From: Jimgerdemannia flammicorona
Taxonomy: Eukaryota
Reading direction: 5' to 3'
DNA length: 36,711 bases
Assembly: GCA_003990765.1 (NCBI GenBank)
Contig: RBNJ01000204.1
Coordinates: 1-36,711, forward strand
This document shows positions 810-33,537 of the stretch, piece by piece (within the stretch, counting starts at the first letter, position 1; each line of letters begins with the position of its first letter). Under the pieces are notes generated by a model. The model searched no databases. It saw only the letters and a program-made list of their open reading frames with translations, and had not been told where the DNA came from. Both the position numbers and the translations under genes were made by a program.

Positions 810-911
810 AAATAAGTAATTTTATCTCTAAATCATCTTATTCAAACTTCTATACTTTGACCAATTATATGTTCTTATACTATATAATCTACTCAATTAT
901 ATTCTCTTAAT
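810..911 (-). pseudogene. C-terminal part of element C accessory ORF3
   Basis: After removing element A and one TSD copy, ...KKYY*|ENIIE*II*YKNI continues in frame from 15395. Confidence 0.55.
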
Positions 912-1390
912 TATAAGAGATTTACTTGTTAGAGTAACCATTATATAGTTCTGGAAGAGTTTTCTGAAAGTTCTGGATATTCTGGAAGACTATTTTCTTT
1001 AGATCAAGATCAATTTCATATAGAGTATATCCTCTATACTTATTGATTTTAAGATCAGATTGATGTCTTAACTAAAGTCCTTTTTCAGACTAGTTCTGAA
1101 TATTCAGAATTTTCATATTTCAGAAAGTTTAAGAAACTAAGACCAGCTTAGTTGAATTGGTATATTACTATAGACAATACCCAATCAGAAAATTTCATGA
1201 TATAGTTAGGAGTAGATTTAACAGAGTATAGATTTACTTAAGAGTAGTTTGTAGATTATTAAATAGATTTATTTGCTATTCATGATATTGCTATATTAAG
1301 AGTAGTTGTATAAAGAGATATTGTGGAGAAGTGTTCAGAAGTTGTATTTAGATTATTCTTGTCTGAGTTTCTGAAATTTGGAGAAGGAGG

Positions 1391-1398
1391 TATTTATA
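1391..1398 (-). promoter_or_regulatory. Putative TATA box of element A LTR
   Basis: TATAAATA on the minus strand followed by pyrimidine-rich CCTCCTTCTCC, ~480 bp from the U5 end. Confidence 0.55.
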
Positions 1399-2119
1399 CT
1401 AATAGAAGGCTATCTGGACTATACTGAATATAGATATAGCACTTAGTGTCTTACTGAATCAAAATGCAGTTACATAATATACATAAGTATAAACTGACAT
1501 ATCAAGAGATCATCTGACTGCTGAGTTAGTTTACAGTTATATCATATAAGGCTAATCTAACTATACTAATAACTACTAAGCTATCTATAGATTTAGATAC
1601 TATCTGGATAGTCTTTAATGATATTACTATCAATGATATTATCTCTGATGAAGTAGTTATCTAGAAAGAGTGGTTCTCAGATTACTTCTCTCTATTTGCT
1701 CAGATAATAATACATCAGAACCTCATCACTATTTTACAGAATAGTATTATCTATCTCATATACTGAGTATGGAGTTAGTGAGTGAAGAAGAGATATATTA
1801 TCTTTACTTTCATCAGATTTGCTGTCTGTATACCTTTTATAGGTTATAGCACTATATGTTGCTGAATTGTAGTAAGCTGATAGCTATTATTTATATCACT
1901 CATACTTGAGTGGTAGAGTTATTGGTTTGATCTTAAGAGTTATCTGGAGATATAAGTTGTGTTCTCTAGTCTCTTCATTATAGTTGAAGTAGTTAGAGAT
2001 GAATATAGATTAGTACTTATATCAGTAATTATTATCCCAATAGATCTCATAGATAGTTATGAACTATTATAAGTTCATCAGCAAAGTTGGTAGGGTGATT
2101 AGGGCTAGCAGAGATCATT

Positions 2120-2720
2120 ATCTTCTGCTTTATTATTATTAAACTAAATTATATTATATATTCTTCATAGTATATCTAACTTAGGGCATTTGTAGGATGT
2201 AGTTATTGAGGTATAGAAAGGTTCTATCTATGGTCTAGATATACTTGATATACTTGTAGTTAAGTTCTTATACTATATTTCTAATTTGGCCATAGGACAG
2301 GATGGTAACCATTTTAGCAGTAGTAACTCAGAGGCAGAGAATAAAGATACTATACTCATAAAAGAATTCTTGGTATTTATGAGTAATGAGTTTCTAGTAT
2401 TGGAATATCTGGGTAATATCTATGTCATAGTAGTGTTCAATCATATCTTCCAGGAGGTGGCCAATCTGATAGTAGCTTGAGATTTGTCTAATTCAGTGGG
2501 TTTTGCTGAGTATGTTCAGGATATTTTATTGGACTTCTACAAAGTAAAGGAGTGCTAAGCTATGGATATTCATAAGGGGCAGAGAAGGTGTGGCTCAGTT
2601 GATAATAGTATTCCAAATGTCAGTACAGATATAGTTATAGATCTCAGTAGTCATATTTGTATATATGTTTAAGAGTTGTGGTTGTTTATTTAGTTTGTTG
2701 TAGTTTTTGTTTTGATACAT
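2120..2720 (-). pseudogene. Accessory ORF inside U3 of the element A 3' LTR (may extend with frameshifts to ~1600)
   Basis: Single frame from ATG 2720/2654: MTTEIYNYICTDIWNTIIN*ATPSLPL...IRQISSYYQIGHLLEDM...THKYQEFFYEY...VTTAKMVTILSYGQI. Several stops differ between the two LTR copies (e.g. TGA vs CAA, implying ancestral CGA). Confidence 0.7.
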
Positions 2721-2921
2721 CTAAGTACTCAGTATATATATTCAGTTCTGATTAGTAAGGTTTTGTTTATGTAAATCTTATATTCTATAACTTCAAGTTG
2801 ACTTAGCTTTATACTCTATGACTTTGATTTAACTCAGCTTTGTAATCTTATATATGATTTCTGAATTCAATCTGAGAGTGATATGTGATTTTAGTAGCTT
2901 AGAGATTGTGCACTTATAACT

Positions 2922-2929
2922 CTCTCCTT
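2922..2929 (-). promoter_or_regulatory. Polypurine tract of element A
   Basis: AAGGAGAG on the minus strand, then AGT, then the 3' LTR. Confidence 0.7.
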
Positions 2930-3369
2930 AGCTTTCAATGTCCTCATTGAGGTCTTCTAATTTTGGTCTAGTGTTGTTATACTATTTAGATGGTCAAAAG
3001 TCTGGTAATATCTATTTTTCTCAAAAAGTGGTATACTTGTAATACAGTTGCCTAATGCATTAGATTCACATGTTAAAGAGTCATGTATTCAATACTGTAT
3101 ACTGGAAGTGATTCTGATATTATTCATTACTGGAGAATTTCCTTTAAGAAATCTTCTTAAATGTTTATATCTTATTTCCTATCAGTAGTATAGAGATAAT
3201 AGACTGGTTTTCAGTTTTGCTATTTTTCTAGAGGGTCAGTATTCTTTTATCTTGTCTTATTGAGTTCTTGATTTCATTCATAATAATTATAAGGATACTT
3301 AATGTTTAGGAGGGATAGTATATGATGTAAACTGATAGATGCTGGGGTGTTCAGTTTCAATTATTTAAA

Positions 3370-3525
3370 GAATTATATTCTTGAACTAGATTAGTAGTAT
3401 TCTAGAGGTTGGTCTTAAGTTTCTATATTGTATCATAGATTGGATAACCTTTCTATTTGACAAGGTACTCTAGATGGTTCTTGTGGCTATATTTATTGAG
3501 GATTTGTTCAACTTCATATTCTTCT
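3370..3525 (-). pseudogene. Chromodomain at the C-terminus of element A integrase
   Basis: DQEEYEVEQILNKYSHKNHLEYLVK*KGYPIYD matches the EYEVExIL...YLVKWKGY chromodomain consensus. Confidence 0.9.
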
Positions 3526-3529
3526 TGGT

Positions 3530-4895
3530 CATTAATAATGATAAGTATAGGTGGTTTTGCAGTTTAGTTCAGGAATAGCTTATCATCATTTTCATTATAA
3601 TACTTGAGATATTAGACATTAAAGACTGGATGAATCTTAATAATATCTAGTAGTATCAATTTATAGGAAGTTAGAGAGACTTGTGTGATGACTTTGAATG
3701 GTCTAATGAATTTGCTGTTCAGCTTTATAGATAATTTATACTTGAGGTTATCAACTTAGTATCCTTAGATATCTAGTAAAACTTTTTCTCTGATATTAAA
3801 AGTTTCTTCTCAGTAGTACTAGTTGATATTCTATGACTATTGTTCTTGAGCTTAAGATAAATTCTTGATTGCAATCTGACTTAAATTATACATTTAGAGT
3901 AAGAATTCTTCAATGGCTTCAACAGTGGAGAGTTCATTGGTAGTTCTGATGAGTATCAGAGGGGTGTTTGGGTTTTGCCCTGTATTGGTAAAGAACAGAG
4001 TCATTTCAAGAGAGGCTTGCTTGCTGTTATTATAGGTAAACTCAACTATAGTAAGGTATTCATATCAATCATCTTGTCTATAGGAAATATAGTTCCTTAA
4101 CATTTGTTCTAAAGTTCAGTTTATTCTTTCAGTTTGACCATCAGTTTCAGGATAAAAGACTATAGATAGTATAAGTTTTATTTCAAGATGGGCATAGAGA
4201 GCTTTCTAAAAATAGCTGGTAAATTTTAGATCTCAGTTACTAATAATGATCTTCAGAAGACCATGATAGCAGAAGATGTTATTAAATAAGAGTATAGTGA
4301 TTTCAGATACTGTTATAGTTGTAGCAGTAGGTATAAAGTAGGCTTGTTTGCTGAGATAGTCTACAAAAACAATAATTGCATCTTTTCCATTCTTAGTTCA
4401 GGGTAGTTATATAATGAAGTCCATAGAGATTTATTCCCAATTAGCAGATGGTACTAGTATAGAGTGGAGTAGACCAGGTTTTGCTAGTGTTGAGAACTTG
4501 TTGTATTGGCAGACATTATAGAAAGTAATGTAAGTTTTTAGCTAATCTGCCATATAGAGCCAATAGAAGTTTCAGAAAATAACTTCATAGTATTTGTCAA
4601 ATCTTAAATATCTAGCTATAGGGGTATTATGATATTCAAATAGGATAGTTCTTTAGAGGTCTCAATTGTTTGGAATATATAATCTGTCCTTATAGTAGAT
4701 AGTATTGTCCTTCAGTTGGTATTGATGATACTAGATATACTTGTCAATATTGTCACTGCTCAGAATTTCTTGGAGTACTTGAGCTTCTTTATCATCAGCA
4801 TATGCTATGATAATTTATTCTATAATAGAGTTGGTAACCAAGGTAAGAGTTTGAATAACTTCTTTGATTGGTGGTCTGGAGATTGTATTGATAAT
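3530..4895 (-). pseudogene. Element A integrase
   Basis: Minus-strand motifs W(E)*ISMDFI, IVFVDYLSK, YPETDGQTER, KFIRPFKV (GPF-like) and IHPVFNV, with many stops. Confidence 0.88.
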
Positions 4896-4919
4896 AATAA
4901 TATATATATATATTTAAAG

Positions 4920-7900
4920 TTATTTGGACTCACTATTTATTACCAGTCTAGTTACATTATCTCCTCCCACTACCCAATCCTCATAGGAGAGCCCCCTCCT
5001 ATATCTTCACACTTAAATACTACTCTACTATCCACTACTCCAACTCTCCCCCCACTCTGTCTACAGATTTTCTCCACCAAGCAATGTCTCTGACCACTCT
5101 ACAGACCCCAACCTAACCACCAGCCTGTCAGAATATCCTCCATCAACTTTTCTCATCTTAACAGCTGTACCCCTAAACTCAAATACCTCTCTTCCTCAAA
5201 AACAAACAATCAGTGACCTGTCAGCCCCACTCAAACAGCTAATACTCAACCTATAGTAAGCCACTCCTTTTCTATTCTCCCTACCAATCTATCTCTCATA
5301 TTCTCTCACCAACCTCTCTCACCATCCCCTCTGCACACAATACCCAATCAATTCCCAACTACTAGCCAAAAATCACTAAGTACCTCACACTCTTCCAGCC
5401 AATGTTCTGGTATCTGTACAAATTCTCCTTTCTGTCCTACATTGTAGTACTTCTTATAGTCAAAACTATCCCCCTCTACAAGATAGCCTGAGTGAAAGTT
5501 GAGCATGACATTCCTCTACAGCATACACTATCAGACTACTCAGTACTTCAGTAGCAGCTATTGTCATACCTCAGCACACCAGGCCTAGACCCTATTCCAG
5601 TCTCACTTCTCTCTGATTCTAGCCAACTATCATCTACTGGGTCATAAATTCTGTCCTAACCCCCTCTGGCACTTGATCCTATTACTAATATTGAAATTAA
5701 TTAGAGAGATATCCCACAACAACACTCTGTCCCATCTCTACATTGCTGGGCCCCAAGGCATCTCTTCTTCATTTCTTCTCCAGTAAATTTCAATGTAGTG
5801 TGCCCCATCTACTACCCCTATCAGAAGTCTTTGTACTGTATGCACTCATTGTTCTGAAGTCTAACTAAGGACAGTAGATCTTCTATAAAGCCTCTTAGTG
5901 AGGGCCTCATCTTCCAGACCTTCTTCATTAGAGGAACCTAATCACCTCCTTGTAGCTCCACAGCTCTCTTCAGCTACCATGCTCTCAGACAGTACAGCCT
6001 CTTCAAAAAGTCAACAAGTCTGAGGCCCCCTCTAGCCACTGGCAAAGACAAAATTTCTCAGCTAATCTGACTCCTTCTCTCAGCCCAGATCTACCCCTTG
6101 GTTAGTTTCAATAGTCTCTTTACCACCCAGACTGGAAAGTCTAGGTAATAAGCCAAATATCACAACTTTAGTAGCCAGTAGATGTTCAAAATTGAAACAT
6201 GCTCTGCCAAAGATAAGTGGTGTCCTCTCCAACTCTATAGAGCCTCTCTCCAAATCACAACTCACTGCTCTCATCAAGGTCTCAGTAAGACTGACCTATA
6301 TACTAATAGATAGATGTTCAAGTAGCACACCATCTCTTCAGTAAGGACAATTGTTCCAATGATATCTCCTCCTACCAAACTATTGCCCAACACTATCATT
6401 TCACACTTATACCAATTGAGTTTAGCCCTAGAGTGAGTCTCATACCACTCTACCATCTCTTTGAGTTCCTTGATATCTGCAATCAATCTCAGGCCAACCA
6501 CTATATTATCTGTAAAGGCTCCAAATTTCCACCCAATTCCAAATACTAAGAGTCCAACTATCTTCTGCTGAATCTTATCCATCAAAGGCTCTAAGGAAAG
6601 AGCATATAGAATAAAGGGCAGTGGGTCTCCCTGAAGGACACTCCTACCCAGGGGAAATACCACCCCTCTATGTCTATTATATATAAGTGTACCTCTACTC
6701 TCTTTCAATAGGCTAACTATCACTACTTGGAACTAGTGAGAGATATCAATCCTATTCAATATCTTCATCAATCAGACCTACCAAATATAGTCATATACCT
6801 TCTTCTAATCTAGAAAAACCAGTTGCCTATCCAGACCACAGGCCCATGCCTCTTTAATAATATCATATATCTAAGCCATGCCATCCCTAATGAGCTGGCC
6901 CCCTACAAAGCCCCACTACTCCTCACCCAAGACTTGCTAAGCCACTTTCTGCAGCCTTGCTACCACTATCTTAGTAATCAACTTTCTGTCCATATCCAGA
7001 AGTATGATCAGCTACCAGTTCTTCCAGTTCTCTCTTCTGCTCTTATTCTTATAAATTAGTATTACTAGCTTTAGATTCTGCTCACCCACTCATCTTCCTA
7101 ACTATAGTATTAAGTCACAAAGTACCATCAGCTCTCCTAATACTCTAGGGACTCCCACTATCTTCTTCCAAAGTCTCAAGACAGATCATCCTCCCCTGGC
7201 ACTATATCTAGTATAGTTGCAGCAAGAATCTGACAAATCTCCTTCTCCTATACAGACAATGTCAAGCTGCCCAGCCCTTTTACTTATAGTGGGTGCCAAT
7301 CTTCTAAAGTCTGATCAATGATGACAGCATCAGCCCCACCCTCCTCTTCACTCTACAGACCACTCCACCTCTCCTTTAATAATTTAAGAATGTCTTGTAT
7401 ACTATACACCAGCTGTCTATCAGAATCTAGTACCCCCTCCCACCTCTGCTTTACTCTCCTCATCTGAAGAGCTCTCATGAGATACTTAGAGGGTCTTTTC
7501 CCTTCTTCTAGCCCCTGCCAATATAACTATACTGCCAAACTCTGTACCTGTACCTTCTTCTTCTCCCACAATATCTGTTGTAACTTCTCAACTTCCATTT
7601 TTACCTGCAACAGTCTCCAGTCCTCTACTCCCTCCAGGGTCAACAGATCAGCCCAATCTTCCAGAAGCCTAGCCAATCTAGTAGAAGCCCACATCACCCT
7701 CTTCCTCCTCCACCTTCCAGCCATCTTGCCAGCCTTGCTCCAGTAGACCCTGGTGGCCTCTTTTATTCTTATCTACTGGACACCAACTGGGGCTCCTTTC
7801 TATATCCAACCTTCCACCCTCTGCTGAATGTCCTCAGCCCACTTATTCCATAGCACCTTATCATCTAACAAAGAGGAATTGAGGTGTCAATATTCAGGCC

Positions 7901-8623
7901 CATTCCCACTCTTCCCAAAATATCTCTGTCTTAGTAGCCCCCAATGATCAGACCATAGACACCACTCAGCCTCCAGTAACTTCCAAATACCCAAGCCCTA
8001 GCAGTTTGCTATCAGAATCTAGTCAATTCTTATCCCTAGACTGCTTGCCCAGTGTATGTATACTCTCCTATTTATCTCAAAACTCCCTACTAGCATCCAT
8101 TAGAGTACTTAGCCTTTCCACTTTCTCCTATACCTTCAGATCTTCACTCCTATCCTCAGCCCCTCATTCTCTATCAGTTCTATTCACCAGTATATCTCTG
8201 ACTATATTAAAGTCTCCTTCAAGCATATCCACTCCTATCTCTATAAGAGTCCCACTTTTCTAGAGACCTTTCACCCAATCTACATGCTCACTCCTCACAG
8301 CAGGGCAGTAGTAAGAATCCACTAACCAACTTTCAACCTATTTATATTCACTCTCCCCAAACCAGTCTGTCTCTCCAGCTTCTTACATCTCATATCTCTC
8401 CTCTGTCTCTCTAGATCAGAATCTCAACCTTGCTCTTCCAAACTACCTCACCTCCCTATTCCTTTGTCTATTTTAGTCTATCCAAATAATTCTTACATCT
8501 GATATCCTGCAAAAGAAAGAGATCAGCCTCCAATCTCTTCAGCTAAGCAAAAATGTTTCAATACTAAAATGAACTCCATAACCCATTCACATTCAAAGAA
8601 AAAATATTAGTTATACTGTTCAT
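4920..8623 (-). pseudogene. LINE ORF2 (AP endonuclease + reverse transcriptase + C-terminal Zn region)
   Basis: MNSITNIFSLNVNGL start, GDFN, SDH, D*KKVYD, QGDPLPFILYALSLEPL, FTDN (ex FADD), RGGLRL, EHWLEEC; ends WVVGGDNVTRLVINSESK*. Confidence 0.9.
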
Positions 8624-8710
8624 AAGAAATATTATAAGATAGCAAGTGTATCCTCTATTACTCCATATTCATCTCCTCCTAAGCCAAGTCTAGATTGCAT
8701 TCAGCAGTCA

Positions 8711-10620
8711 CTACCTCCTCTTTGATCCTCTTAGCCTCCAATCCAACCAGTAGTTTAGCAAGTTCCCCATTCTCTTTCTTCTTGAAATCCTCATAATACT
8801 CCAGGCAGACCTCCTGCCAGAGCTGCAATCCATGATGCTCCACTCAACAGAAGGTGGCCTACTCACCAGCAGCAACTGCCAGCTCAGTCTCCTTCTCCTT
8901 ATTAACCTCATATCTTTCCTCTAGGAAAACTACAAGAACCTCTGCCTTCAGTGCCTCTATCACTCTATTATTATGCAGAATCTATGCCCAATGCTCTTCA
9001 CTCATCACTCTCAGGTCCACCTCTCCCAACTCCTCTGCTGCAAAGTTATTTATCATCTGATATATTCATAGTAGATTTCTTACCTCCTTCCTTCCTGAAG
9101 TTACTGGCCTTCCTCTATTCAGTATTGAGGTATCAATCTCTGCACTCATAGTCTTATCCCACTCCTCCTCTTGAATGTCTACTAGTTCATTCTTACCAGC
9201 TACCACTATCTGTCCCCCCTTTACTACCTCAAGAACTTCAAAGTATACTTACTAGGTTCTCTATATAGACACATCCTCTGCCACCTAGCTCCTTGAAGCC
9301 AGACCTCATCTAATAAGAGAAGTAGAAGTTGAGGAGTCCTTCCAGACCTCAAATATACCATCTGTATATGAGTCATTATCAGTCACCCCCTTGTCCACTT
9401 CCAGTCCCTTTTCTATATTCTTTCCATCTTCACTAGCTTAGACACTCACTTTGACTCTCCCCAAGATCTCAATTCCACCAGTATCCTTCTTCACTCTACT
9501 CTTCAGATTTGCCAACAGCTCTCTCTATCTCTTATATTCTTGGGACCTTTCTCACAGCTTCTTATCTATATAGATCTGCTTTCTATCCACTATCTCTAAA
9601 TGTATCAACTATATATATGCCTCTAAGCCTTTGTCCTCCACTCTACTATACCACTCAGCCCCTCTAGTTTCTCCAATAAATTCTCTTTCTTCTTCTCACT
9701 TCCCTTTATCCTCATTATCTTATATAAGAATGTCCCCCATACTATTACCAATAGCCAGTTCCCGACCTTCCCAGTAGCTTCCCTTTCTGCTAACCAAATC
9801 CAGATATCAATATCCCCAGTTCTGAATGAGGTCCCTTCCTAGACCTGGAACCCAACATCAACTACCTCTTCATACTTAGTCATGACTTCCTCAACTCTTC
9901 TCCTTATCTCCACAGTAATCACTATAGATACTCCTTTTACCAGAAATTGCACCACTCTAGGGTCCTACCTCAAGTAGCATGCCATTGGAATATACATCTC
10001 TCTGACAGTCAGCCTAGCCTTCAGTATATCCTCTAATAGCCCAGCTTTCTCAAAGCCCACCTCTACTCCTTCTAATCTCTTCAGAAACTTTACAGATGCT
10101 ACTTCAGCTATCTGCTTAGTAATCAGCCCCAATACTATTTTTGCTGTTACTGCTAAACCCCTGAAGTATAAAGTAACTATAAACTCTGAGATTGACTTCT
10201 TGAGTAATGGGGTCACCACTAGGTCTGTTATACCATCTATCAGATCCCCCATCCATCTAAGCCCCATCCTCTCAGCCCTGTTATCAGCAGTTACATCTGG
10301 ATTTTTTTCAGATTACCAGTCACCACCCTATCAGCAGTTATACTCCCAGCCACTACTCTACCAGCCCTTCTACCTGATACTCCCAAGGGAGCCCCTCCTG
10401 GCTCTCCAGCAGCAGCTGTCTCCTTTACTGTCTCCTGGCCCTTTCTCAGCCAGCTCTCTAGCCTATTTATTAGCTAACCCCTCTTCATCATATCAGCAAA
10501 GTTTGCTCTCTCTGTCTCCTATCCTCCAACCCTGCTTCCCCCCCTTCTATATCCTTCTATCAGTAGACCCCTCATGTTTCCCCCCAAGCTAGGGCCCCTT
10601 CTCATATATTGCCAGTTGAA
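8711..10620 (-). pseudogene. LINE ORF1 remnant
   Basis: Located upstream of ORF2; ORF-track fragments 9965-10267 and 8711-8911; RRM-like EVMTKYEEVVDVGF...FRTGDIDIWI. Boundaries approximate. Confidence 0.55.
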
Positions 10621-10705
10621 TATGCTTGGGCCACCCTGCTCAGTATATATCTTGGAATACTCATCAGTTGCTATGTTACTAGTCTCTTTTTTTCAAAAAT
10701 GATAT

Positions 10706-12000
10706 TGTGAGTGTCTTCAAAGATTGTGTAACCTGAATGTTATCAGAGAAAGATGATAATAATATTTTCCTTATCAGAGTGATACTGGATTTTATAGTCA
10801 AAGTTAGTGAGAACTTTTAACTATCTGGCTTACTTTTAAAAAAGAATAGTCTGGATCTTGATATTAACTAATGATTTGTGGTCTATTAAAATAGTGAAGT
10901 ATACTTCTTCAAGATAGAGTTACTATTTAATCATATAATGGCTAGCATTTCCTTCTTATGAATTATATAGTTGATTTCTACATTATTGAATTTTTGAGAA
11001 TAGTAGGCCACAGAGTGTCCTTCTTACATAAGTACTGCTCTAAGAGCTAGGTCAGAGACATTAGTAGTACATAACTTCATATAGTAGGGCAGGATTTATC
11101 ACTTGAAGTACTGGAGTGATTATTAAGACATCCTTTAGTGCTTAAAAGGCTATATCTTATTTATATTTCCAATTTACAAGATTGTTGAAGTCTTTTTCTT
11201 ATTTTGTAGTTCAGGGCTGTTCTTCTTTCTTGCTATACTTGATTATTTGGATAAGAGCAGTAGCAATCTTCATCTTTTAGCTTCTTAGGTTTGGGCCAAT
11301 TCTTGATTGTAGAGATTTTGCTAGAGTCTACTTTGATTTTATTGGGAGTAATAATGTGTCTAAGGAATTGAATTTCCTTCAGAAGGAATTCATATTTGCT
11401 GAGTTTTGCAAAGAGTCAGTTTTCTCAAAGCTTTAGTAGTACTAGTTCAAGATGTTCAAGATGTTTCTCTAGGGTTTTACTGAAGACCAGGATGTCATCA
11501 ATATAGATAATAACAAATTTATCTAGATATAAGTATAGAATGATATTCATCAGTATCTGGAAGATTGCAGGAGTATTAGTTAAGCCAAAGAACATAACCA
11601 AGAACTCAAAATATCTATAGTGAGTTTAGAAGACTATCTTGTAAATGTCTTCTTCCTTTATGGCAATTTGTTAGTAACTATTTCACAGGTCAAAAGAGCT
11701 TATAAATTGTGAATTAGTAAGTCTATTAAATATTTCATTGATTCAGGGTAGTGAGTAACAGTTCTTGATAGTCTGTTCATTGAGATCATAGTAATCAATA
11801 CACATTTGCAGGTCTTCTCCTTTCTTGACAATAAAGAAGACTGGTGCTCCATAGGGTGATACACTGGGTTTGATGAATCCTTGCTCTAGGAGTTCATCAA
11901 TCTCTTTCTTGAGTATATCAATTTCTCTCAGAGATATATAGTAGATTGACTTGAATACTGACTTAGCATCTGGGATAGTCTTGATGGTATAGTCTACTAC
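10706..12000 (-). pseudogene. Element A reverse transcriptase and RNase H
   Basis: [51 protein letters not shown]. Confidence 0.9.
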
Positions 12001-22090: not shown

Positions 22091-22146
22091 GTAGTAATTA
22101 TTTATTATTTAGCTTAAAAGTGAGAGATTTATCTTGAATTACCAGC

Positions 22147-22158
22147 TAATAGATACTA
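22147..22158 (-). promoter_or_regulatory. Primer-binding site of element C
   Basis: TAGTATC.. (TGGTATC with one G>A) 3 nt inside the 5' LTR. Confidence 0.5.
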
Positions 22159-22161
22159 AGT

Positions 22162-22564: not shown

Positions 22565-23892
22565 TATGATATGAACTTCCAGTATAGCATAGTTACTTAT
22601 GTCTACTACACTTATAATTAGCCAGAATACCAAATCAGGGTTATTTATCTATATTCTGAGGACACACCTATATCTGGTAGATATACTTATATTCTGTAGA
22701 TATACTCATATCCTGTAGACACACTCATATCCTATAGATATACTTATGTTCTATAGACATACTTAAATATTACTAGAGATGATAAATCTATAATTATTCA
22801 GATAGCAACTAGATAGTAACCATAATATATAAAATACCCCAGAGATAAGAGTGAATAAACCTCAGTCCAAATTGAAGTACAAATTAAAGAAGTTTTTAAA
22901 GATTGAGCATTAGTCTCCTTTTTCTATTTTGGTCTATTTTTTGATAGAAAGAACAAGTCTATTTTTAGTTTACTTGCTAGATAAGCCTGCCAAAGTTCAA
23001 GTAAAGAACTTTGCCACTATTTAAGTAGTCTGTCACTTAAGAAATAAGCTATCATTTTTAAGAAATTTGCTATCTTATTACAAAGCCAGTCTGTTGACAC
23101 AACTTTGCAGTGAACTTATTTATATAAATGAAGCCAGTCTCAATATAACTTTGCCAAGAACCTGTATTCCCAGAGAGCTCTTAAGGAATCTTGCTACAAG
23201 CCAGCCTCTTGATGTAACTTTATAGTAGAGCTAGTCTATGATATAACCCTATGCAAATGAAACTAGTCTTTAACATAACTTACTGAGAATCCATATTATC
23301 TAAGTTATCTGAATATTCACTATCTGAGTTATTTATCTATTCCCAGTAAGCCCAATTTAGAAGAATCCATACTATCCACTATTCTCAAAAGAGCTAATTC
23401 AGAAAAATCTGCAATATCTAAGTTATTTAAGTTATTTGAATTATCTGTACTATCTAAGTTATTATTCAAGAAGTCTGCTAATTTAGAATCTGCACCAAAT
23501 CAAGTTATCTATCAAATTATATATTTTTGGAGATTATTGCACTATATAGAGATTACCTATTACTTAAGAAGGAAAACTACTAAATTACTAGACTACTTCA
23601 TATAAGAAAACCCATTACACTATATAGAGATTATTATGCAGAAATCACCTATCACTTAAGAAAAAAACTGCTAAATTACCAGTCTGCCACATACACAAAT
23701 TACTACTATACTCAAGAACCTATCCTAATAAGAATATTACTTATTATATCTAGATTGATTATTATATCTCTAAATACTAATAAGAAAACTCAGAATATTT
23801 TGCTACTTTTTAACAAAGTAACTAGGAGTTCAAGCCAAACTACATCAACCCCCATCCTTGTAATTTACCTCTATTGAGTCAGGTATATTATA
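22565..23892 (+). repeat. 5' LTR of element D
   Basis: Co-linear with 31447-32820; TATATAAAA ~22826, AATAAA ~22854; internal tandem sub-repeats. Confidence 0.92.
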
Positions 23893-23894
23893 TT

Positions 23895-23911
23895 TGGAGG
23901 CTCAACTAAGA
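23895..23911 (+). promoter_or_regulatory. Primer-binding site of element D (TGGAGG type; tRNA-Gln-like, Thr/Cys possible)
   Basis: TGGAGGCTCAACTAAGA 2 nt after the 5' LTR. Confidence 0.7.
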
Positions 23912-24289
23912 AGATTTCAAATCAATGTAACTTTTTAGCTTATAAGAACCTATAGTCAAACTGAATACATTTGATATAATACCAATCTCTACTACTATAG
24001 GAGAACTAGTCATCACCAGCATTTGGACAGGAAGAGAAGTAATTACTTCAAGACTTGTCAACTACCCAGTATCAGAAAGATTCCAACCAGAAGCTAGTAT
24101 AGTATAGAATTTCCAGCCAGTACTAACAGACTTATTACAGAATCAATCAGATCAACCAGATTATACAGACAGCCTTGCCAGAATTTTTAATAAGCTAGTA
24201 TATCAACTTGAAGACCTCATTGAATAAATCTGATTCTCTATAAAAGACTCACTAATTTCATCTATTGATCTCTTACCACCAGCTACTAC

Positions 24290-25400
24290 AGAACAGAAAG
24301 ACTAAGAAGTTGTCTCTTTAAGGATACTCAGACCTATTCCACCCTATCCAAGATCTTCTATACCATCCTCAGGATACCCAAGTGTCTTAGACTCCAGCAA
24401 TAACTCAGAAAGTGAATCAGATTCAGTATCAGGATTAGAACCAGAACCAGAATCAGAAGACAGTGATGACAAAATAATCACCCTATTGTTAATCTTTGCA
24501 GGATACCCCAAAGAAGACCCAAGAGAATTTCTTGATTGAATAGAAGAAATTACAGCTCTGAAAAACCTCACTTCTGAAAGAAAAATCACTATCTACAAGG
24601 CCCAACTTAGAGAACCAGTTAAAGGAATTTTTATTCAAGCATACAATAATTCAAACTCAGACCTTAGAGCAGCTATCATTACAGCAACAACTTGGCTAGC
24701 AGAGTATCAAGCTATGACCCACTGGCTCATTGAGAAGTATGCAGGAAATGAGACCTGCTACAAGGCTTAAGAATCTATCATAAGAATGAAAATGAACCTT
24801 AGAGAATCACCCAGAGCCTTCTTTACAAGAATTCAAAAGAGAATGTATATAGCTGGATTCAATACCACTAACCAAGATATCATAGGTCTAATGACCTTCA
24901 TGAATGGAATTTCCCTGGACATTACTCAGTATGTCTATACTCTAGATATCAGAAGGTTTAAAGAACAAGTAGATGTAGCCGAAGAATTCTTTAATATCAG
25001 ACAAGGAACTACCTAAAGTGACTATAATAAGAAGGATAATAAAGAAGATATTCTGATCAAAGCCCTATAAGGACTTCTTTAAGGATAGGAGTAAAATTCA
25101 GGACCTCAGTTCTAAGTTGGACTGATTGGTTGGACAGATTGAAAAACTTACCATATACAAAAATCAGAGTTATCAAGACAACAGAGAATACTCACCACAG
25201 AGGAGCCAAGGTTATCTACTAAGAGATAATAGAAACTATCAGTAAGAAGAAAGGATATATCCTATCCAAAACAGAGCCCAAGTCTAATACTTTCATTATA
25301 GATAATTTGGATACTATACCACTGAATATGACAATAAAAGGAGTGATCAAAGGGATTCAGAACTACTAAATCAAAGGAATGAAACCCAGTATAAGAAGAC
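24290..25400 (+). pseudogene. Element D gag
   Basis: IFAGYPKEDPREFLD, ESPRAFFTRI and FMNGI; knuckle YFHYR*FGYYTTEY at 25288-25329 (Cx2Cx4Hx4C with C/H>Y). Confidence 0.85.
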
Positions 25401-25939
25401 TGAAGTCTATCCTGTTGAAGACTTTGAAGAAGAAAGCAACAGTGAAGACTATAGTGACCTAGACTTGTACTCAGCCAAAGTTATCATCCAAAAGCCAGTT
25501 TACCTAGTAGAGAAGAGGAAGAGACCTATAGGAAGACCATCCAGGAATACTAGTAGAAGAATTATTCAAGTAGAAGACAAAGAACATGAAGAGAAGCAAG
25601 TAGAAATACCCCCTAGGTCTCTCTCATCTTTTGTTTCTGAAACAAATAAACTATCTCTAGAAGATAAAGAAATAGAGCAAGAAGAATGGGAACCTGCTGT
25701 CCTAAAGCCCAAAAAGAAGTATATCTCAAAGACCATACCCAGAGATATCTACAATAAAGTCTGGCAAAAGATTCAAGAAGCCAAGATGGAAGTTTCTCTC
25801 CTGCAGTTTCTACAACTAACACTAGCTAGAGTCTGAAAAAAATTACTAAGAACTACTAGGTCTAGCACTGGCCAAGTTCCAATTCTATAGCAAGAACTAG
25901 CTCTTACCTCTATCCAAGCTATGGAGAGATATGTTAGCA

Positions 25940-26290
25940 CTTATCTACATAGAGATATTGGAGGACAAAAGGAAAAAATCCTCATAGATATAGGAGTAGC
26001 TATCTGTATTATTGCCAAATGATTCCTAGATACCCTCCAATGGCCCATTGATGGACCATCTAACATTAGCATCATAATAGCAGATAGAGCCCAAACTCAA
26101 CCCCTTAGAGAAGTATAAAACATCACTATCTCTCTTAAATACATTCAGTTCTCCATTCTAAAAGCTATTATCACTGAAACTGTTATCTATGATATAATCC
26201 TTAGCACCAACTGGATGAAGAAAATAAATACAGTTATTGATATTGGTCAACAAGTACTCAAGTTTGACTACTGAGGCAAGAAGTACAGAG
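25940..26290 (+). pseudogene. Element D aspartic protease
   Basis: ILIDIGVAICII (ex DTG) and YDIILSTNWM. Confidence 0.85.
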
Positions 26291-26520
26291 TTAAGATAAC
26301 TAGCTATGAGCAATCAAAGAAAAAGAAGAAGGTTACTATCCAGAAAGAATATATCAGCAGTAAAGAGTCTACCATAGAAGAGGAAGAAGAATCCAAAGAT
26401 AGAAATGATCCCAGACTCAATCCACAAATCAACCTAGTAGATGATAGGCCAGAAGATAATGTGTGGGCCAGAAACACTATCTCTATTACCATTGGAGCCA
26501 TTGCAGGAGAGATCAAAGAA

Positions 26521-26640
26521 TGCTCTATCTGCCTCAAGAAATACAAGTACTCTAAGCACTCCTCCAAAATTATTGGGACAAGGAATTCACCTGGTACAGC
26601 TTGCTCTGAGTGCAGAAGAAGGAAGAAGAAATGCAGATAT
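26521..26640 (+). pseudogene. Zn(II)2Cys6 (GAL4-type)-like cysteine cluster in frame with D pol
   Basis: CSICLKKYKY-x17-CSECRRRKKKCRY, in the same frame as the protease and dUTPase. Confidence 0.6.
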
Positions 26641-27599
26641 GTTCCAGAAATACCTGCAGCTGAAGCTGCAGAAGTACAAGCAATCTAGGATTAAAAATTA
26701 TCTAAGGAAGAAGAAATCTCTAAACAGGAGGTTCCTGAACAAGAAGTACCTGAAGAGGAAGAAGTTCCTGAACTCATTCTCTGGGATGACTCTTGCTGGA
26801 CACTACTCAAAGATAATGACCCCTGGAATATTGAAGAAGGATCCAGCACAAGCTCCATTATTTCTAAGTAAGAAACATACTAAGAAAGAGTCTTTTGGCT
26901 AGGAAGATATCCATATTAAATCATCTTTTACTTTTCTTGAAACTACTGCTATTAGTGCCATCTGCTGGACCAATAAGAGAGACAAAGACTCCAAAGATTA
27001 AAACTCCCAACTATAGTTGCATAGTCAACTACTTTCCAAGAAGTTACTACTAAGTTACAAAGCTGATTTAGAGGATAAAGTCTCTTTATCCAAATAGAAA
27101 TATATCTCTTGGCCACCCTTTCCCCAACTTATAACCAAGATAGATACTGATTCCTGAGACAATAAGAGATCAATAATCAGAAACAGCATTTCTAAACAAT
27201 GAGATATTGTAATTATAGAAGACACCCAAACTGCTGAGACTGCAGATATCAAAAGATTCATCCTAGTTAGGATATCACAATTTACATCTTAAAGAGAGAA
27301 GATAATATAGACCAGATCCAAAAAAGCTAGACCAAGAAACCAGAAAGAAGGACTCTCAAGATCTATAATTTAGAAGAAGATATTTTAGCTCTCATCAGAC
27401 ATACAACCTACTGAGGATGGGTAGAGGATGCTACCAACTTTATGGAAGCCCTAGACCTTACAGGAAAGAGAGAAATCAACTACCTCTGAGATCTCTCTAC
27501 TGGAGCCAGATGGCCACACCTCAACCTCAGAGTCTGGAGACTTTCTACTAGTGGAGCTTCAGCCCAAGGACAGTCTGAACTCAGTAAGAATATTGCCCA

Positions 27600-28001
27600 G
27601 TATGCCCTATTGCATCCAAAGGCCAAACCTCTGACCAAAGCTCACCAAGAAGATATAAGATATAACCTTTATAGTCCAAGGATGAACCCATCAAGCCTGG
27701 AAGAATACTGATGTTTAGAACCAGACTAGCCATGTAGTCACCTTAAGAAACTTACATCTAACTGACCTTAAGGTCTGAGCTTACCAGACAGAGAATAACT
27801 GTAGAAGGAGAAACTATAAACTCGGGATATATAGGTGAAATCAAGATTATTCTATACAACAGTAGTACAGAATGGTACTGAATTATTAGAGGGCAGAAGA
27901 TTGCTCAAGCAGTCTTCATGAGAGTCAAGACCCTATAATTACAAGAAGTCTCCAAACTGACTGAAGGAATAAGACAAGCTGAAGGATTTGGAAGCTCAGA
28001 T
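27600..28001 (+). pseudogene. dut: dUTPase domain in element D pol
   Basis: All five motifs recognisable: AHQEDIRYNLYSP (I), RSEL (II), GETINSGYIGEI (III), GQKIAQAV (IV), RQAEGFGSSD (V). Confidence 0.9.
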
Positions 28002-28499
28002 AAGAAAGAAGTACATATATCTCCTTTAGGTCAATTACCTCAAGAGAAATGTTCCCTAGCAAGTATACTATCAACTAGTTAAACTATACAAGAATCTCAT
28101 CCTAGAGCCTGGAGAGCAAACCACCTTTAAAATCTTTATACTACCTAATCCCAGAAATCTCTTCTTTGAACTTAATAAAGATATCCTGAATTTGGATATA
28201 GAAGAACATATATTTCCTGATAAGATGAATTTAGTATACTCCTGAGCAACTAACCAAAGTTGAGAGACCATCATCTTATCAAAGAGAACTATTATAGGAT
28301 ATCTGGTGCCTTTTCTCAACTGAACTTATAGAGAAGTTTATAAACTAAACTTATTAAGAAATAGTAAAAGATCTCAGAAGAAAGAAAAGGCTCCTTTGTG
28401 ACCCAGGAGATAGTAAAGCCTTCCACTAATATTAAAGAAGAATTGACACTCTAGCAATGGTAATAACTAGTAAAACTCCTCAACAAATATCAAGATATC

Positions 28500-29825
28500 T
28501 TTATCACAGACTATGATAACCTACTATATAATCCATCATATCACTATAGTATAAATACAGAAAATACAACACCTATCTGGTAGAAACCCTTAGAATACCC
28601 TATCACTTAAAGATATTTGAAAAGGAACACATTCAAGAACTCTTAGACAATAGAGTCATTTTGACCCTCAACCAGCTCTTGGGCCAGCCCTATACTTATT
28701 ATACCAAAGAAAGGAGGATAGAGACTCTATGTAGACTATAAGAAACTCAATTTAATTACTGAAAAGGATACCTATTCTTTGCTCAAAATCAATGACCTCT
28801 TGGATCAGTTACAAGATATCAGATACTTCAGCAGTATGGACCTTTTCACAGAATTCTATGAGATTCCTATAGACTTAAAAGACATTGAGAAGACAGCCTT
28901 TCTTGCTCTAGAAAAACTGTTTGAATATCTCTGAATGCTCTTTGAACTTTGAAATATACCTCCTATCTTTCAGAGAATGATGAATTTGATCTATATCTCT
29001 CTGATTTACTACTGCCTGATTGTATATATAAATGATTCAAACATCTACTCAGCAAATTTTGAGGAACACCTGTACTATCTAGAAGAATTCATCAAGCTCA
29101 CCCATAAGAATCACCTGAGACTCAATGTCAAGAAATACTACTTTGGAAAACAGAAACTTGAATTTCTTAAATTCATAATTTCAAAAGAAGGAATCTATAC
29201 AGATCTAAAGAAAACTGAGAAGATTAACAATTGGCCAATACCCAAGACCTTGAAGGAAATACTATCCTTTCTGATACTAGTATCCTACTACAGGAGGTTT
29301 ATCAAAGACTTTACCTAAATTACTACTTTAATCTGAATCCTTCTCAAGAAAAAAGTACCTTATAAATAGACAGAATCACAAGAGAAAGCCTTTAAAGAAC
29401 TCAAGCACTATATGACCACAGCACTAATCCTCATCTACCCCAATCTACAGAAGCCATTCATCTTATATATAGATGCTTCCAAAGATAGTCTAAAAGTAGT
29501 TCTAGCCCAAGAAGGACCTAACTAACAATACTATATAATAGCTTATATAAGCTGAGCTACTAATCAGCAGCAGATGAACTATGGTAGTACTAAATTGGAA
29601 TGTCTTATAGTTATATAGATAGTCACTCTGTTCAAGCATTATCTTATCAGAAAAAGATTCACTCTAATAACTGACTATACAGTCCTCAAATAGCTATTCA
29701 ACTATAAGAAACCTACTGGAATCCTAGCCCACTGGATCCTTATCCTCTAGAATTACAAAATCATCATTATCTATAAAGTAGAGAAAGCTCACAACAATAT
29801 TGATGTACTTTCCTGCCAACTCTAA
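28500..29825 (+). pseudogene. Element D RT and RNase H
   Basis: SSWASPILII, IVYINDSNIYS (ex YIDD), YYRRFIKDF, FILYIDASK, HNNIDVLSCQL*. Confidence 0.92.
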
Positions 29826-30904
29826 TGAACTAGAAGAAGTATATACTGAGGAACTATACTCTAAAGAAAGTTCCTCAGATCATTAAGGTATAGAAAGATC
29901 TTATCTGAAAAGAATATCAGAAAACCCACCAAGGATAGATAAATATAGAAGAAAAGTTGTGAACAGCATATCAACACTGGCTCAATCTCAGAATATAAGT
30001 CTGGAATATACTTAAAAAGTATGATACCTGCCAGAAGTACCAAGGAAGAAAGAACCATTAAGCACTATTACAACCAATTGTACTATTAGACAACATCTTC
30101 TAGAAATGGAGAGTAGATATAATTGGACCCCTACCAGTTACACTAAAAAGAAATAAGTATATTCTTATATTTGTGAAATATCTAACTAAGTGGTCCAAGG
30201 CTTTTCCAATAGAAATTACAGATGCCTTGACCATTGTAGGCCTTCTCTATAGACTCACACTCAGATATAGATCTCCAGAAGAACTTATCTCTAACCAAGA
30301 CACAGAATTCATAAACAAAATAATTATAAGTTATACTAAAATTCACAAGATCTACCTCAAACAGACCACATCATACTACCCTCAGACCAATGATATAATA
30401 GAAAGAATGAATCAGACTATTAAGAAAGAACTTGCCTGAGTTAATTCTACTAACTGAGATCTCTGCTTACCTGAGATCTTATGGGAAATTCAGAACATCT
30501 CTGCTGTCTCCACCAAACAAAAATCCTTTGAAATAATATTTGCTAAGAAAATCAGAACTATTGACTATGAGAACTTCAGAGACCTCCTTAAGAAAGCAGA
30601 ATAGTTATATAATCAAGCCTGAGTTCAGATTATCAAAGCTCAAGAAAGACAAAAGAAGTATTATAATCAGAAGTAAAAGAATCAGAAGATCAAGATTAGA
30701 GATCAAGTACTAGTTTGGAGAAGTATGATTAAAACAAACTTTGCTGCCAAACTAAAGCCCAAATGAGAAGAATTCTATCTTATATACAATATTAGAGAAA
30801 CTAGCATCTATTTAAGAAGTATGAATAGATGAACCCTAAGGACACTAGTATATATCAATTATCTCAAGATATACCTCTCCTCATATCATGAATCAGAGAA
30901 TTGA
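29825..30904 (+). pseudogene. Element D integrase (separate frame starting at a TAATG overlap)
   Basis: THQG...KKYDTCQK Zn finger, WRVDIIGPLP, ELISNQDTEF, YYPQTNDIIERMN; no chromodomain. Confidence 0.9.
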
Positions 30905-31396
30905 TAACTGCCTCCAGACCTTTATCTTCAGTTCCTTCTAAGCTCTACTAGTTCCCCTACTACAGTTTTAAGAACCCAATAGAATATATCATCAAAGGAT
31001 CTAGGTTCATCAAGAAAATCTCACTCTGACTAAGAGATTACTCTAGGTTCACTAGCTATAGGCCTATTATGTAATTAGAGAATAGTTGTAGAATCTTCTC
31101 CTTCTAGATCTGGCCTACGTCTGCAATACTACTGGCCTAAATAGAAGAAATACCACTGCTGTAAAAAGACTATATACAATCTACATACAAATAGAACCCT
31201 TCAGCCTTAATTTAGGTTCAGTTCTCTCTGAATGATCTCCAAAGGATGACCCTACCTATCTACCTTAGTATTATCTACCAAGTTGAGACCCTATTTCTTG
31301 AGAAAGAAGAGAAGTCTTTAAAATAAAGTAACCATAGCATAGATAATGAAGATGATAGAACAGGTATAGATGCAGAAGCTACTTATACTTATTGAA
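30888..31396 (+). pseudogene. Element D accessory ORF3
   Basis: ATG overlaps the integrase end; MNQRIDNCLQTFI...*AYYVIRE*L...GLNRRNTTAVKRLYTIY, then after a frameshift K*NPSALI*VQFSLNDLQRM. Confidence 0.65.
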
Positions 31397-31434
31397 ATAA
31401 TAACTAAAGAATAGTCTGAGGTAGACTATTCTTC

Positions 31435-31442
31435 AGTAGGGG
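31435..31442 (+). promoter_or_regulatory. Polypurine tract of element D
   Basis: AGTAGGGG just before the 3' LTR start TGTGATG. Confidence 0.6.
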
Positions 31443-31446
31443 CTAA

Positions 31447-32820
31447 TGTGATGAGCAAATAGTATAATATAGCCAGATAATGTAAACTTCTAGTATAGTA
31501 TAGTTACTTATGCCTGCTATACTTATAATTAGCCAGGATACCAAATCAGAGTTATTTATCTGTATCTTGAGAACATATCTATATCCAGTAGATACACTTA
31601 TATCCTATGAATACACTCTTGTCCTGTAGATACACTCATGTCCTGCAGACATACTTATGTCCTGTGAATATACCCAAATATTACTAGAGATGGTAAATCT
31701 ATAATTATCCAGATAGCAACCAGATAGCAAGCATAATGTATAAAATACTCCAGAGACAAGAGTGAATAAACCTCAGTCTGAATTGAAGTATAAACTAAAG
31801 AAGCTTCTAAAGATTGAGCATTAGTCTCTTTTTTCTACTCTAGTCTACTTTTCTATATAAAGAATAAGTCCATTTTTAGTTCTCTTGCTAGATAAGCCTG
31901 AAGATTTACTATCAAAGTTTGAGTGAAGAACTTTGCCACCATTTGAGTAGTCTGTCACTTAAAGAATAAGCTATTGTTTTCAAGAAATCTGCTATCTTAT
32001 CACAAAGCCGGTCTATTGATATAACTTCACAGTAAACTTGTTCATGTAAACAAAATCAGTCTTAATATAACTTTGCCAAGAATCTATATTCTCAAAGAGT
32101 TCTTAAGGAACCTTACTACAAGTCAGTCTCTTAATATAACTTCACAGTAGAGCTAGTCTATGATAAAATTCTATACAAATGAAGCCAGTCTTTGATATAA
32201 CTTACTGAGAATCTATATTATCTAAGTTATCTGAATATCTACTACCCAAGTTATTTATCTGTTCTCAGTGAGCCCAATTCAGAAAAATCCACACTATTTG
32301 CTATTCTCAGAAGAGCCAATTTAGAAAGAATCTACAATATCTGAGTTATTTAAGTTATATATTCAAATTATCTATATTATCTAAATTATTATTCAAGAAG
32401 CCTATAAATTTAGAAGAATCTATACCAAATCAAGTTATCTACCAAATTATATACTTTTGGAGATCATTGCACTATATAGAGATTATCTGTCATCTAAGAA
32501 AAAAAACTGCTAAATTACTAGACTACTTCACATAAAAAAATTCATCATACTATACAGAGATCATCAGGTAGAGATTGCCTATCACTTAAGAAAGAAATGG
32601 CTAAATTACTAGTCTACTATATACAAATCACTACTATACCCAAGAACCTATCCCAATAAGAATATTGACCATTATATCCAGATTGACTATTATATCTCTA
32701 AATACTAATAAAGAAACTTAGAACATTTTGTTGTTTTTTAACAAAGTAACTGAGGACTCAAGCCAAACTATATTAATTTCTAATCTTATAATTTACCTCT
32801 ATTGAGCCAGACATATTATA
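31447..32820 (+). repeat. 3' LTR of element D
   Basis: Starts TGTGATG, ends TATTATA (ex CATCACA); co-linear with the 5' LTR. Confidence 0.92.
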
Positions 32821-32824
32821 CTAT

Positions 32825-32906
32825 ATTATATTAAGAATCAGATTTAAATACTATAATTAAATATCTATCTCTTGATTATTGTTTCTAATTTAGATTAACT
32901 ATCACA
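32825..32906 (-). repeat. 5' LTR of element C, part 2
   Basis: Matches ~740-799; ends ATCACA followed by TSD ATAT. Confidence 0.85.
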
Positions 32907-32910
32907 ATAT

Positions 32911-33305
32911 TAACTAATAGCTTAAATTCTTACTCTTGACTTTATAAAACTTGAAGGTTCTCATTCTAGAGAAAATATTGCAGAAGTATTTATAAACTAT
33001 ATTTAGAATCTTAGTATTATAACTAAAATATAGGAGTTTTTTTTTATTTTTAGACTAATTTAAAAAAAGATAAAAAGAAAAAATATATTTTTACTTTTAA
33101 TCATTAACTGTTTTCTGTATAATTTTATATATTAAAATTTTAAAATAAAGATATTAGCTATTATAATAGATTATATATCTCTAATAATATTATATTTCTC
33201 TATATTTTGGTAACTAAACTTTAATAAAAAAATATAATATTTAATACTAACAATATTATATATAGTGTCAGATATGTTCTCAATCTTACTACTTAAGATT
33301 ATCTT
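32911..33305 (+). pseudogene. hAT transposase remnant, right part (probable intron ~33028-33150)
   Basis: LTLDFIKLEGSHSRENIAEVF (HSGENIA), ILAIIIDYIS.NN (AITxDNA) and YVLNLTT*D (HVLNL..Q). Confidence 0.8.
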
Positions 33306-33537
33306 ATATATATATTTGAGACTATAAATATAATATACTAGATATGTCTATATATATTTATACTATTCTAGATAACTATAACTACTAGTCTGAAATTTCT
33401 AGTAACTTATAAATATATATAATAATTCATTACAGAATTGGTCTTAGTTTATTTTTAAGAAGTAGTACTAGAGAATTTCATATAAATAAGGAGGTATTAC
33501 TGAGAAAATATTATTATAATATACATAATACTTTACA

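Follow-up and report, generated by a model that had tools for sequence, protein, structure and literature searches.

A probable accessory gene shared by three nested Ty3 retrotransposons of Jimgerdemannia flammicorona

Accessory reading frames in nested Ty3 elements

The window analysed here, a stretch of 36,711 nucleotides from Jimgerdemannia flammicorona (contig RBNJ01000204.1), is AT-rich repeat DNA with a GC content of 16-45%, and a scan for open reading frames (ORFs) found no long open frame in it. Using self-alignment and Pfam scans of read-through translations we recognised three nested Ty3 elements, A, C and D. In each of them a sense-strand ORF distinct from gag and pol, which we call ORF3, lies after the end of pol and before the end of the element. 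We put the probability at roughly 75% that the three stretches are copies of one real retrotransposon gene that have been damaged by repeat-induced point mutation (RIP). The original prediction had placed one uncharacterised accessory protein family in A and in C and D, and both database relatives and profile scores bear this out. The elements, with their long terminal repeats (LTRs), and the copies of ORF3 are as follows.

912-15394, minus strand: element A, Ty3 with dUTPase, classed as a chromovirus (LTR alignment, Pfam, junction sequences)
22161-15395, minus strand: element C, internal part, Ty3 with dUTPase and without chromodomain, host of element A
22565-32820, plus strand: element D, Ty3 type with dUTPase and without chromodomain (self-alignment; Pfam dUTPase, RVT_1 and RNase H)
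2654-2268, minus strand: A-type ORF, 3' LTR copy, 128 codons plus TAA, 5 in-frame stops
15118-14732, minus strand: A-type ORF, 5' LTR copy, 7 in-frame stops
15784-15395, minus strand: C-type ORF3, 129 codons plus TAA (15397-15395), ATG overlapping the pol stop
30888-31326, plus strand: D-type ORF3, about 145 codons, TAA at 31324-31326, frameshift near 31183, 8 stops in codons 1-101
33430-33503, plus strand: fourth copy, 3' end fragment of a second C-type ORF3

The A ORF is present, as predicted, with one copy per LTR. The stretch first noticed in C (15592-15410) exists too, but it is only the C-terminal half of a longer ORF. In D, ORF3 had been described as two frames. Since frame 1 after about 31183 matches the C-terminus of P0021, one of the relatives introduced below, both frames form a single ORF of about 145 codons that is split by a frameshift.

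The fourth partial copy, expected at 33390-33537, was recovered at 33430-33503, which matches C 15470-15395 when transitions are ignored (purine/pyrimidine alignment, z 7.7, reached by 0 of 100 shuffles). Its translation reads ...F*EVVLENFI*IRRYY*ENII..., compared with ...F*EVVLGDF*QVKKYY* in C and then *ENIIE at 909 onward. The stop codon of C ORF3 (TAA) falls within the target-site duplication (TSD) of A, which means that A inserted at this stop codon; the fourth copy runs on into sequence like the flank of C beyond the insertion and thus represents an empty site. A long alignment between the 3' part of C and 32971-34411 was discarded as noise (about 47% identity, transitions about as frequent as transversions), except for C 843-744 and the fourth copy.

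Repeat-induced mutation of the window copies

In the three LTR pairs, transitions outnumber transversions by 237:8, 198:11 and 47:1, and the differences lie mostly in CpA/TpG context. The base that follows a C/T difference is A in 52 of 73 and in 57 of 98 scorable cases; G never follows. Such near-exclusive C>T and G>A differences between repeats, mostly at CpA/TpG, are the signature of fungal RIP and agree with the earlier view of a genome with intense repeat mutation.

The stops in the ORF copies follow the same pattern. All 20 stops in the aligned A and D copies of the window coincide with Q, R, W or H in relatives, with D position 66 being mixed. In the D copy taken alone, all five unmutated relatives carry Gln, Arg or His at seven of the eight stops, the residues at position 66 again being mixed. 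Stop density is alike in all frames of the ORF regions. Judged by these codon comparisons, the window copies are dead: C>T and G>A changes have turned Gln, Arg and Trp codons into stops.

RIP has erased the signal in direct comparison, so that it could be recovered only through unmutated relatives, and this may be a lesson for similar analyses. We used unmutated natural relatives as the reference in place of a consensus with RIP reverted. A RIP-aware scoring, which assumes the best possible codon before mutation, favours the AT-richest regions if it is used as a scan; it was applied only together with codon shuffles.

Unmutated relatives of the D-type gene

A phmmer search with D ORF3 among 1.84 billion representative sequences found four proteins at E <= 0.001 (P0020 to P0023, E 8e-23 to 2e-8), and D ORF3 matches the hidden Markov model (HMM) of the family with E 4e-29 by hmmsearch. 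The four proteins are 88-157 amino acids (aa) long; in three of them the sequence begins with MTQRID, and in the fourth MNQRID occurs at residue 42. Like P0019, the relative of the A-type ORF described below, they have either no name or only the label 'hypothetical protein' in the databases. A metagenome scan with the family alignment yielded three D-type loci from 505 pattern matches (L001, L002 and L003) with a nearly intact pol, and P0021 is the product of L001. The same alignment gave 32 pattern matches in the viral_contigs collection, none of which was confirmed. When we searched for close relatives with the D integrase, we found only distant Ty3 polyproteins (21-27% identity).

No stop interrupts the ORF3 frame in any of the four proteins P0020-P0023, nor in L003 as far as its contig reaches. 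Between the three loci, the frequencies of differences at codon positions 1, 2 and 3 are 0.25-0.29, 0.20 and 0.43-0.62. The ratio of nonsynonymous to synonymous differences (pN/pS) is 0.28-0.34 in the ORF3 frame compared with 1.12-1.63 in the two shifted frames, in all three locus pairs; using the ORF3 translation as a guide for the alignment introduces a slight bias towards this frame, but the alignment contains few gaps. On this codon-level comparison, D-type ORF3 evolves as a protein-coding gene under purifying selection. Two observations weigh against this, namely that L002 has three in-frame stops in addition to a broken pol, and that L003 has no ATG at the start of ORF3 (ATAA). As a separate observation, residues about 64-119 of P0022 no longer align with the family, which suggests a frameshift in the source copy.

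The A-type gene inside the LTR

With the A ORF of the 3' LTR as the query, its stops replaced by X, a search of 5.8 billion clusters in a word-indexed collection found P0019, a protein of 128 aa (66% identity, 99% coverage, E 8.8e-39). Conversely, tblastn aligns P0019 with the 3' LTR copy at 63% identity over 128 aa (E 4e-49) and with the 5' LTR copy at E 1e-46. The stops of the 3' LTR copy correspond to R20, W43, R54, Q87 and R109 of P0019 and those of the 5' LTR copy to W14, R42, W43, R54, Q63, Q85 and R109; the C-terminal end of P0019 coincides with the TAA (codon 129) common to both copies. P0019 is a singleton on a contig of 1180 nt. With P0019 as the query, we retrieved only P0019 itself among six candidates, and a metagenome scan gave 92 pattern matches of which none was confirmed. 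That the A-type gene has a single unmutated relative from which to judge coding constraint has to be held against our reading. Coding support for A and C is indirect and comes from protein similarity that is retained while nucleotide similarity is gone.

The ATG of the A-type gene (2654) is situated 264 nt inside the LTR (start 2918), downstream of the polypurine tract and of the weak chromodomain match and about 700 nt beyond pol. Because the polypurine tract and the LTR start lie upstream of the ATG, the gene belongs to the LTR and is hence found in both LTRs. Presumably, it is located in U3.

Homology of the A, C and D versions

The similarity originally claimed between the A, C and D stretches is not above chance if the window ORFs alone are compared, and it becomes significant via the unmutated relatives. 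In Smith-Waterman alignments against 1000 residue shuffles, p was 0.055 (A5-D) and 0.145 (A3-D), where A5 and A3 denote the copies of the 5' and 3' LTR; it was 0.21 and 0.63 for the two A-C comparisons and 0.73 for C-D. Between 2.6 and 19% of about 1800-1980 other six-frame windows score as high as the window ORF pairs, and neither nucleotide nor purine/pyrimidine alignments of the window ORFs were significant. Such chance-level results are what one would expect if only the D-type ORF3 were real, the likeness of A and C were due to chance or composition, and P0019 were a spurious call on an LTR; that P0019 is a singleton 'hypothetical protein' on a short contig fits this as well. We nevertheless consider this explanation unlikely, given how P0019 and the window copies compare with the D-type relatives.

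BLASTP aligns P0019 with P0021 (E 5e-4) over 46 ungapped residues at equal distance from Met1. Smith-Waterman alignments of P0019 with the four D proteins gave p values of 0.0004, 0.0006, 0.0096 and 0.086 with 5000 shuffles. Against an HMM of six D-type sequences P0019 has an hmmsearch E of 1.1e-4, and only 1 of 5000 shuffles reaches its score. In global alignments from Met1 of both proteins, the first 72 residues of P0019 gave z 7.75, 7.73, 5.68 and 5.34 with the four D proteins, values reached by 0 of 3000 shuffles in each case; the cut at 72 residues was chosen after the alignment had been seen, and z is 3.1-6.2 with 100 residues. To this one can add that P0019 is open at the RIP-type stops of the window copies and ends at their shared stop.

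The window copies agree with this result. When the D HMM is run over the whole six-frame window, the best matches besides D are both A LTR copies, in the correct frame. Aligned globally from the ATG with the D profile, A5, A3 and C have z 6.0, 4.9 and 4.7, compared with z of about 0 in shifted frames and a maximum of 4.36 over 1500 random windows; the raw score of A5 is reached by 0 of these 1500. For C, the global z of 4.6-4.7 corresponds to p 0.001, again with z of about 0 in shifted frames. C also has the same ATGA junction as L001 and L002 (15784-15781, where the pol frame ends ...LSKLTQKVL*), and its ORF3 begins with ATGACT (MT..Q) at the same place after pol.

There are several results that weaken this argument. 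P0019 against P0020 alone is not significant (the p of 0.086 above). The profile-profile comparison that had been proposed as a check remained weak for A against D: in two hhalign runs E was 0.003 and 0.017, and the probability 10% and 2.6%, respectively. The raw score of C is equalled by 18 of 1500 random windows, and local-alignment tests for C range from p 0.008 to 0.32 depending on the scoring. Apart from these results, of the aligned residues named at first, I5, P23, L25 and Y61/62 are invariant in the joint alignment, but N7 and C8 are not family features, as the relatives carry Q/H/N and R/H/C at positions 7 and 8. Weighing both sides, we hold that the ORF3 versions of all three elements are homologous, as the alignments through the relatives show.

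The stretches had also been interpreted as a mobile module that is exchanged between lineages. Identity between L001 and L002 is about 97% from integrase until some 15 codons into ORF3, and then falls to 55-75% (L001 1835 onward); the ORF3 of L002 resembles P0020, and that of L001 is P0021. This drop indicates recombination inside ORF3 between related D-type elements. So exchange is seen between related D-type loci, but none is seen between A and C or D. ORF3 of A and D shares 18-22% identity (28% locally), and their integrases share 22% over 51 aa. With ORF3 and integrase diverged to a similar degree, common descent accounts for the shared gene no less well than exchange, and descent within the dUTPase-bearing Ty3 group would be at least as good an explanation.

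Junction with pol and possible expression

In L001, L002 and window C the TGA stop of pol and the ATG of ORF3 overlap as ATGA. The ATGA is found in window D as well, but there the pol frame is out of step with the TGA by 1 nt, which counts against our reading. The A-type gene has no upstream ORF at its start. We propose that the C and D ORF3 protein would be made from genomic gag-pol RNA by coupled termination and reinitiation at ATGA. The A-type gene would still be part of the genomic RNA, in its 3' part, and would need another route of expression.

A comparable arrangement is known from victoriviruses of filamentous fungi, which translate their second ORF by AUGA stop/restart with the help of an upstream pseudoknot (PMC6631646). 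As described there, the UGA of the upstream ORF overlaps the downstream AUG, as in the ORF3 elements; unlike these, victoriviruses are dsRNA viruses and not retrotransposons, and they need an H-type pseudoknot just upstream. Folding of the 70-76 nt upstream of ATGA does not add to the likeness, with z of -2.1, +0.7, -0.4, +1.3 and +1.0, none significant; this was plain minimum free energy folding, which does not cover pseudoknots. Separately, we noticed a stem of 7-8 bp (UCUUGAG...CUCAAGA) that recurs in L001-L003 about 20-25 nt upstream of the pol stop and ORF3 start.

L001 1735-1770; L002 1161-1196; L003 3799-3836: recurrent stem, no covariation, folding z not significant

Potentially, ORF3 could be not a separate protein but a C-terminal extension of Pol, reached by -1 ribosomal frameshifting near the end of pol. 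Relative to pol, ORF3 is indeed in the -1 frame; in P0020 and L003 this frame stays open over 41 codons ahead of the usual ATG, and L003 lacks an ATG at the usual place. On the other hand, a stop lies in the upstream frame 21 codons (L001) or 9 codons (L002) before the ATG, and P0020-P0023, L002, window C and window D all have the ATG. The A-type gene, moreover, is separated from pol by some 700 nt, a polypurine tract and an LTR start. An extension of Pol thus appears rather improbable to us, and we prefer a separate ORF3 protein.

Predicted protein and its role

The ORF3 protein has 128-145 residues, with a predicted short N-terminal helix, a Pro-rich linker (PxPLP) that holds an invariant P..PLP, and a long helical hairpin. 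An AlphaFold2 model of P0021, computed with a small family alignment, has helices at 2-18, 34-69 and 81-129 (pLDDT, the model's confidence score, 61), and the model of P0019 has the same three-helix topology with helices at 2-20, 30-73 and 80-127 (pLDDT 66). Both points have to be taken with caution: the models are of low confidence, and they share an alignment, so that their agreement is not independent. A further point on the negative side comes from the 'recognition' values in the Protein Atlas (2273 and 1462), which are below the level reached by 91% of known families; the Atlas gave no usable lead for P0019 or P0021.

The original prediction saw in the protein a likeness to ParB, KorB or DUF1016, that is, a helix-turn-helix DNA-binding protein acting as a trans-activator or anti-silencing factor. 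The protein is predicted to be all-helical, D-type members have a short basic patch (RRN..KR), and the host genome mutates repeats heavily, all of which would suit such a role. None of the five proteins (P0019 and P0020-P0023) matches a Pfam family at E <= 10, and the best match in a PDB profile search is a 'putative transfer protein' at E 0.37. In the Foldseek comparison with PDB, which had been suggested as a check for the KorB fold and is a weak test because the model used has a pLDDT of 61, there is no match at E <= 0.001; the best has E 1.4, and the top rows are generic helical hairpins without helix-turn-helix proteins. The full-length isoelectric point (pI) is acidic to neutral (5.2 for P0021, 6.3 for P0019), and the low-confidence model consists of long helices and not of a compact helix-turn-helix bundle. 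The ParB/DUF1016 idea thus finds no support in the Pfam, PDB or fold comparisons, and we regard it as very improbable.

Env-like features were not found either: the maximum 19-residue Kyte-Doolittle mean is 0.57-1.18 in all five proteins, with no dedicated transmembrane (TM) predictor being run, and at 128-157 aa the ORF3 proteins fall short of the several hundred residues of env-like proteins. Given the lack of an enzyme-like or DNA-binding signature and the acidic to neutral pI, our guess is that ORF3 may be a protein-binding helper of the element's own replication, for instance in particle assembly or trafficking of the complex.

A more specific and distinctly speculative proposal assigns ORF3 a role in regulation or counter-defence within a dUTPase-bearing fungal Ty3 group, with translation by ATGA stop-restart and a move of the gene into U3 in A; we would give it little credence. 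In one possible variant it is a Rev/Rex-like adaptor, in which the Leu/Pro-rich segment LQTLILSSFQSLPxPLPLF, which we take to resemble export signals, serves for export and the hairpin for self-association. In another, it blunts the host's defences against repeats. If the regulatory proposal were true, the U3 location in A would put a copy of the gene into every LTR, solo LTRs included.

Relation to known extra genes

LTR retrotransposons are known to carry extra genes, but only a few of these genes are understood, and descriptions from fungi are scarce. In the literature consulted as full text we found no description of the ORF3 family; the comparison with earlier reports of extra ORFs is by description and not by sequence. 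Bdelloid rotifer LTR retrotransposons have additional ORFs (ORF3) that are shared between diverse lineages, are modular in structure and show signs of having been passed between elements (Rodriguez, Kenefick and Arkhipova 2017, PMC5408684). There, too, a third ORF follows pol in dUTPase-bearing Ty3-like elements, and the same type of ORF occurs across lineages. The rotifer ORF3s described in that report differ in being env-like, GDSL esterase, DEDDy exonuclease or TM/coiled-coil proteins of at least 210 aa, whereas the fungal ORF3 has 128-145 aa, no enzyme or TM signature, and an LTR-internal position in one lineage.

In fungi, an 'add. ORF' of unknown function has been drawn for Gypsy elements (Novikova et al. 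2010, PMC2864245). The same report describes dUTPase-bearing elements, e.g. PosPlaTy3 and Tmt1, in some of which dUTPase lies between protease and reverse transcriptase (RT), its position being variable among fungal elements. These are, by description only, similar to ours in being fungal Ty3/Gypsy elements with dUTPase and unexplained additional ORFs, and the main text of that report gives no sequence family for the extra ORF. Another small unexplained extra gene of a fungal Ty3 element, likewise compared by description only, is brtn of the Boty-like (BcGypsy1) elements of Botrytis cinerea (Zhao et al. 2011, cited in PMC8365987). According to the cited title brtn is antisense, while ORF3 is on the sense strand.

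The position of the A-type gene downstream of the polypurine tract, in both LTRs and at the 3' end of the genomic RNA, has a parallel in retroviruses, where accessory genes lie in or overlap U3 of the LTR (sag of mouse mammary tumour virus, nef of human immunodeficiency virus). Unlike these, the A-type gene belongs to a fungal host and to an element without env, and we claim no relation in sequence or fold.

The ORF3 family is unnamed and has five database relatives in the collections searched (1.84 billion representatives for D and 5.8 billion clusters for A). It occurs both in a putative chromovirus and in elements without chromodomain, under purifying selection in the D type, and with two anatomies, either overlapping pol at ATGA or embedded in the LTR. 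To the extra genes already known from such retrotransposons it adds a real, if modest, new case. ORF3 is a candidate for what fungal retrotransposons need beyond gag-pol, and it raises the question of whether the stop-restart translation of fungal RNA viruses is used by retrotransposons too.

Architecture of the window

The remaining features of the three elements are listed below, RT and integrase domains being given where Pfam placed them.

912-2918, minus strand: 3' LTR of A, with a 428-bp insertion at 985-1412 that is absent from the 5' LTR
about 13797-15394, minus strand: 5' LTR of A
907-911 and 15395-15399: TSD of A, ATTAA, 5 bp (junction sequences)
13197-12820, minus strand: dUTPase of A (Pfam E 1.5e-14)
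11826-11362, minus strand: RT of A (Pfam)
11068-10931, minus strand: RNase H of A (Pfam)
4664-4497, minus strand: integrase Zn domain of A (Pfam)
3731-3597, minus strand: SH3 domain of A (Pfam SH3_Tf2-1 E 1.4e-8)
3518-3372, minus strand: Chromo of A (weak Pfam match)
331-857, and 22162-22564 with 32821 onward: LTRs of C, the second one interrupted by D
19957-19586, minus strand: dUTPase of C (Pfam E 1.9e-7)
about 22565-23892 and 31477-32820, plus strand: LTRs of D
TSD of D, CTAT, 4 bp (junctions compared with the uninterrupted copy at 725-765)
about 27678-27998, plus strand: dUTPase of D (Pfam E 1.1e-14)

The A LTR is about 1.58 kb long. The chromodomain of A is a weak match in a stop-riddled reading (Pfam Chromo E 0.0017, 18.6 bits compared with a cut-off of 25.1). 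The 5-bp TSD of A and the 4-bp TSD of D had both been predicted and are confirmed by the junction sequences; D is inserted in the 5' LTR of C. A repeat search within 15300-22300 gave no LTRs for C, which are the split repeats listed above. In all three elements dUTPase precedes RT (Pfam), and the pol of C and D terminates directly after the SH3-like motif of integrase (30854-30877 in D).

A retroelement of non-LTR type is nested in the pol of A at about 4700-10930, between RNase H and integrase, with an RVT_1 domain on the minus strand at 7026-6394 (Pfam E 2.6e-13). Its GC content of 40-45% is far above that of its surroundings, its GC skew is -0.29 to -0.52 (plus strand), and no terminal repeats were found for it. 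The RT region of C is broken by a GC-rich stretch at about 17700-19100 (49% in 18001-19000), which has no Pfam match in the minus-strand frames that were read. An Rfam scan of the window gave no match. From 32900 to 36711 the window consists of extremely AT-rich repeat debris (GC 16-23%), in which we observe a tandem duplication of roughly 490 bp (33596-33885 similar to 34083-34374) and an inverted piece of the C LTR (33916-34032 similar to 857-738).

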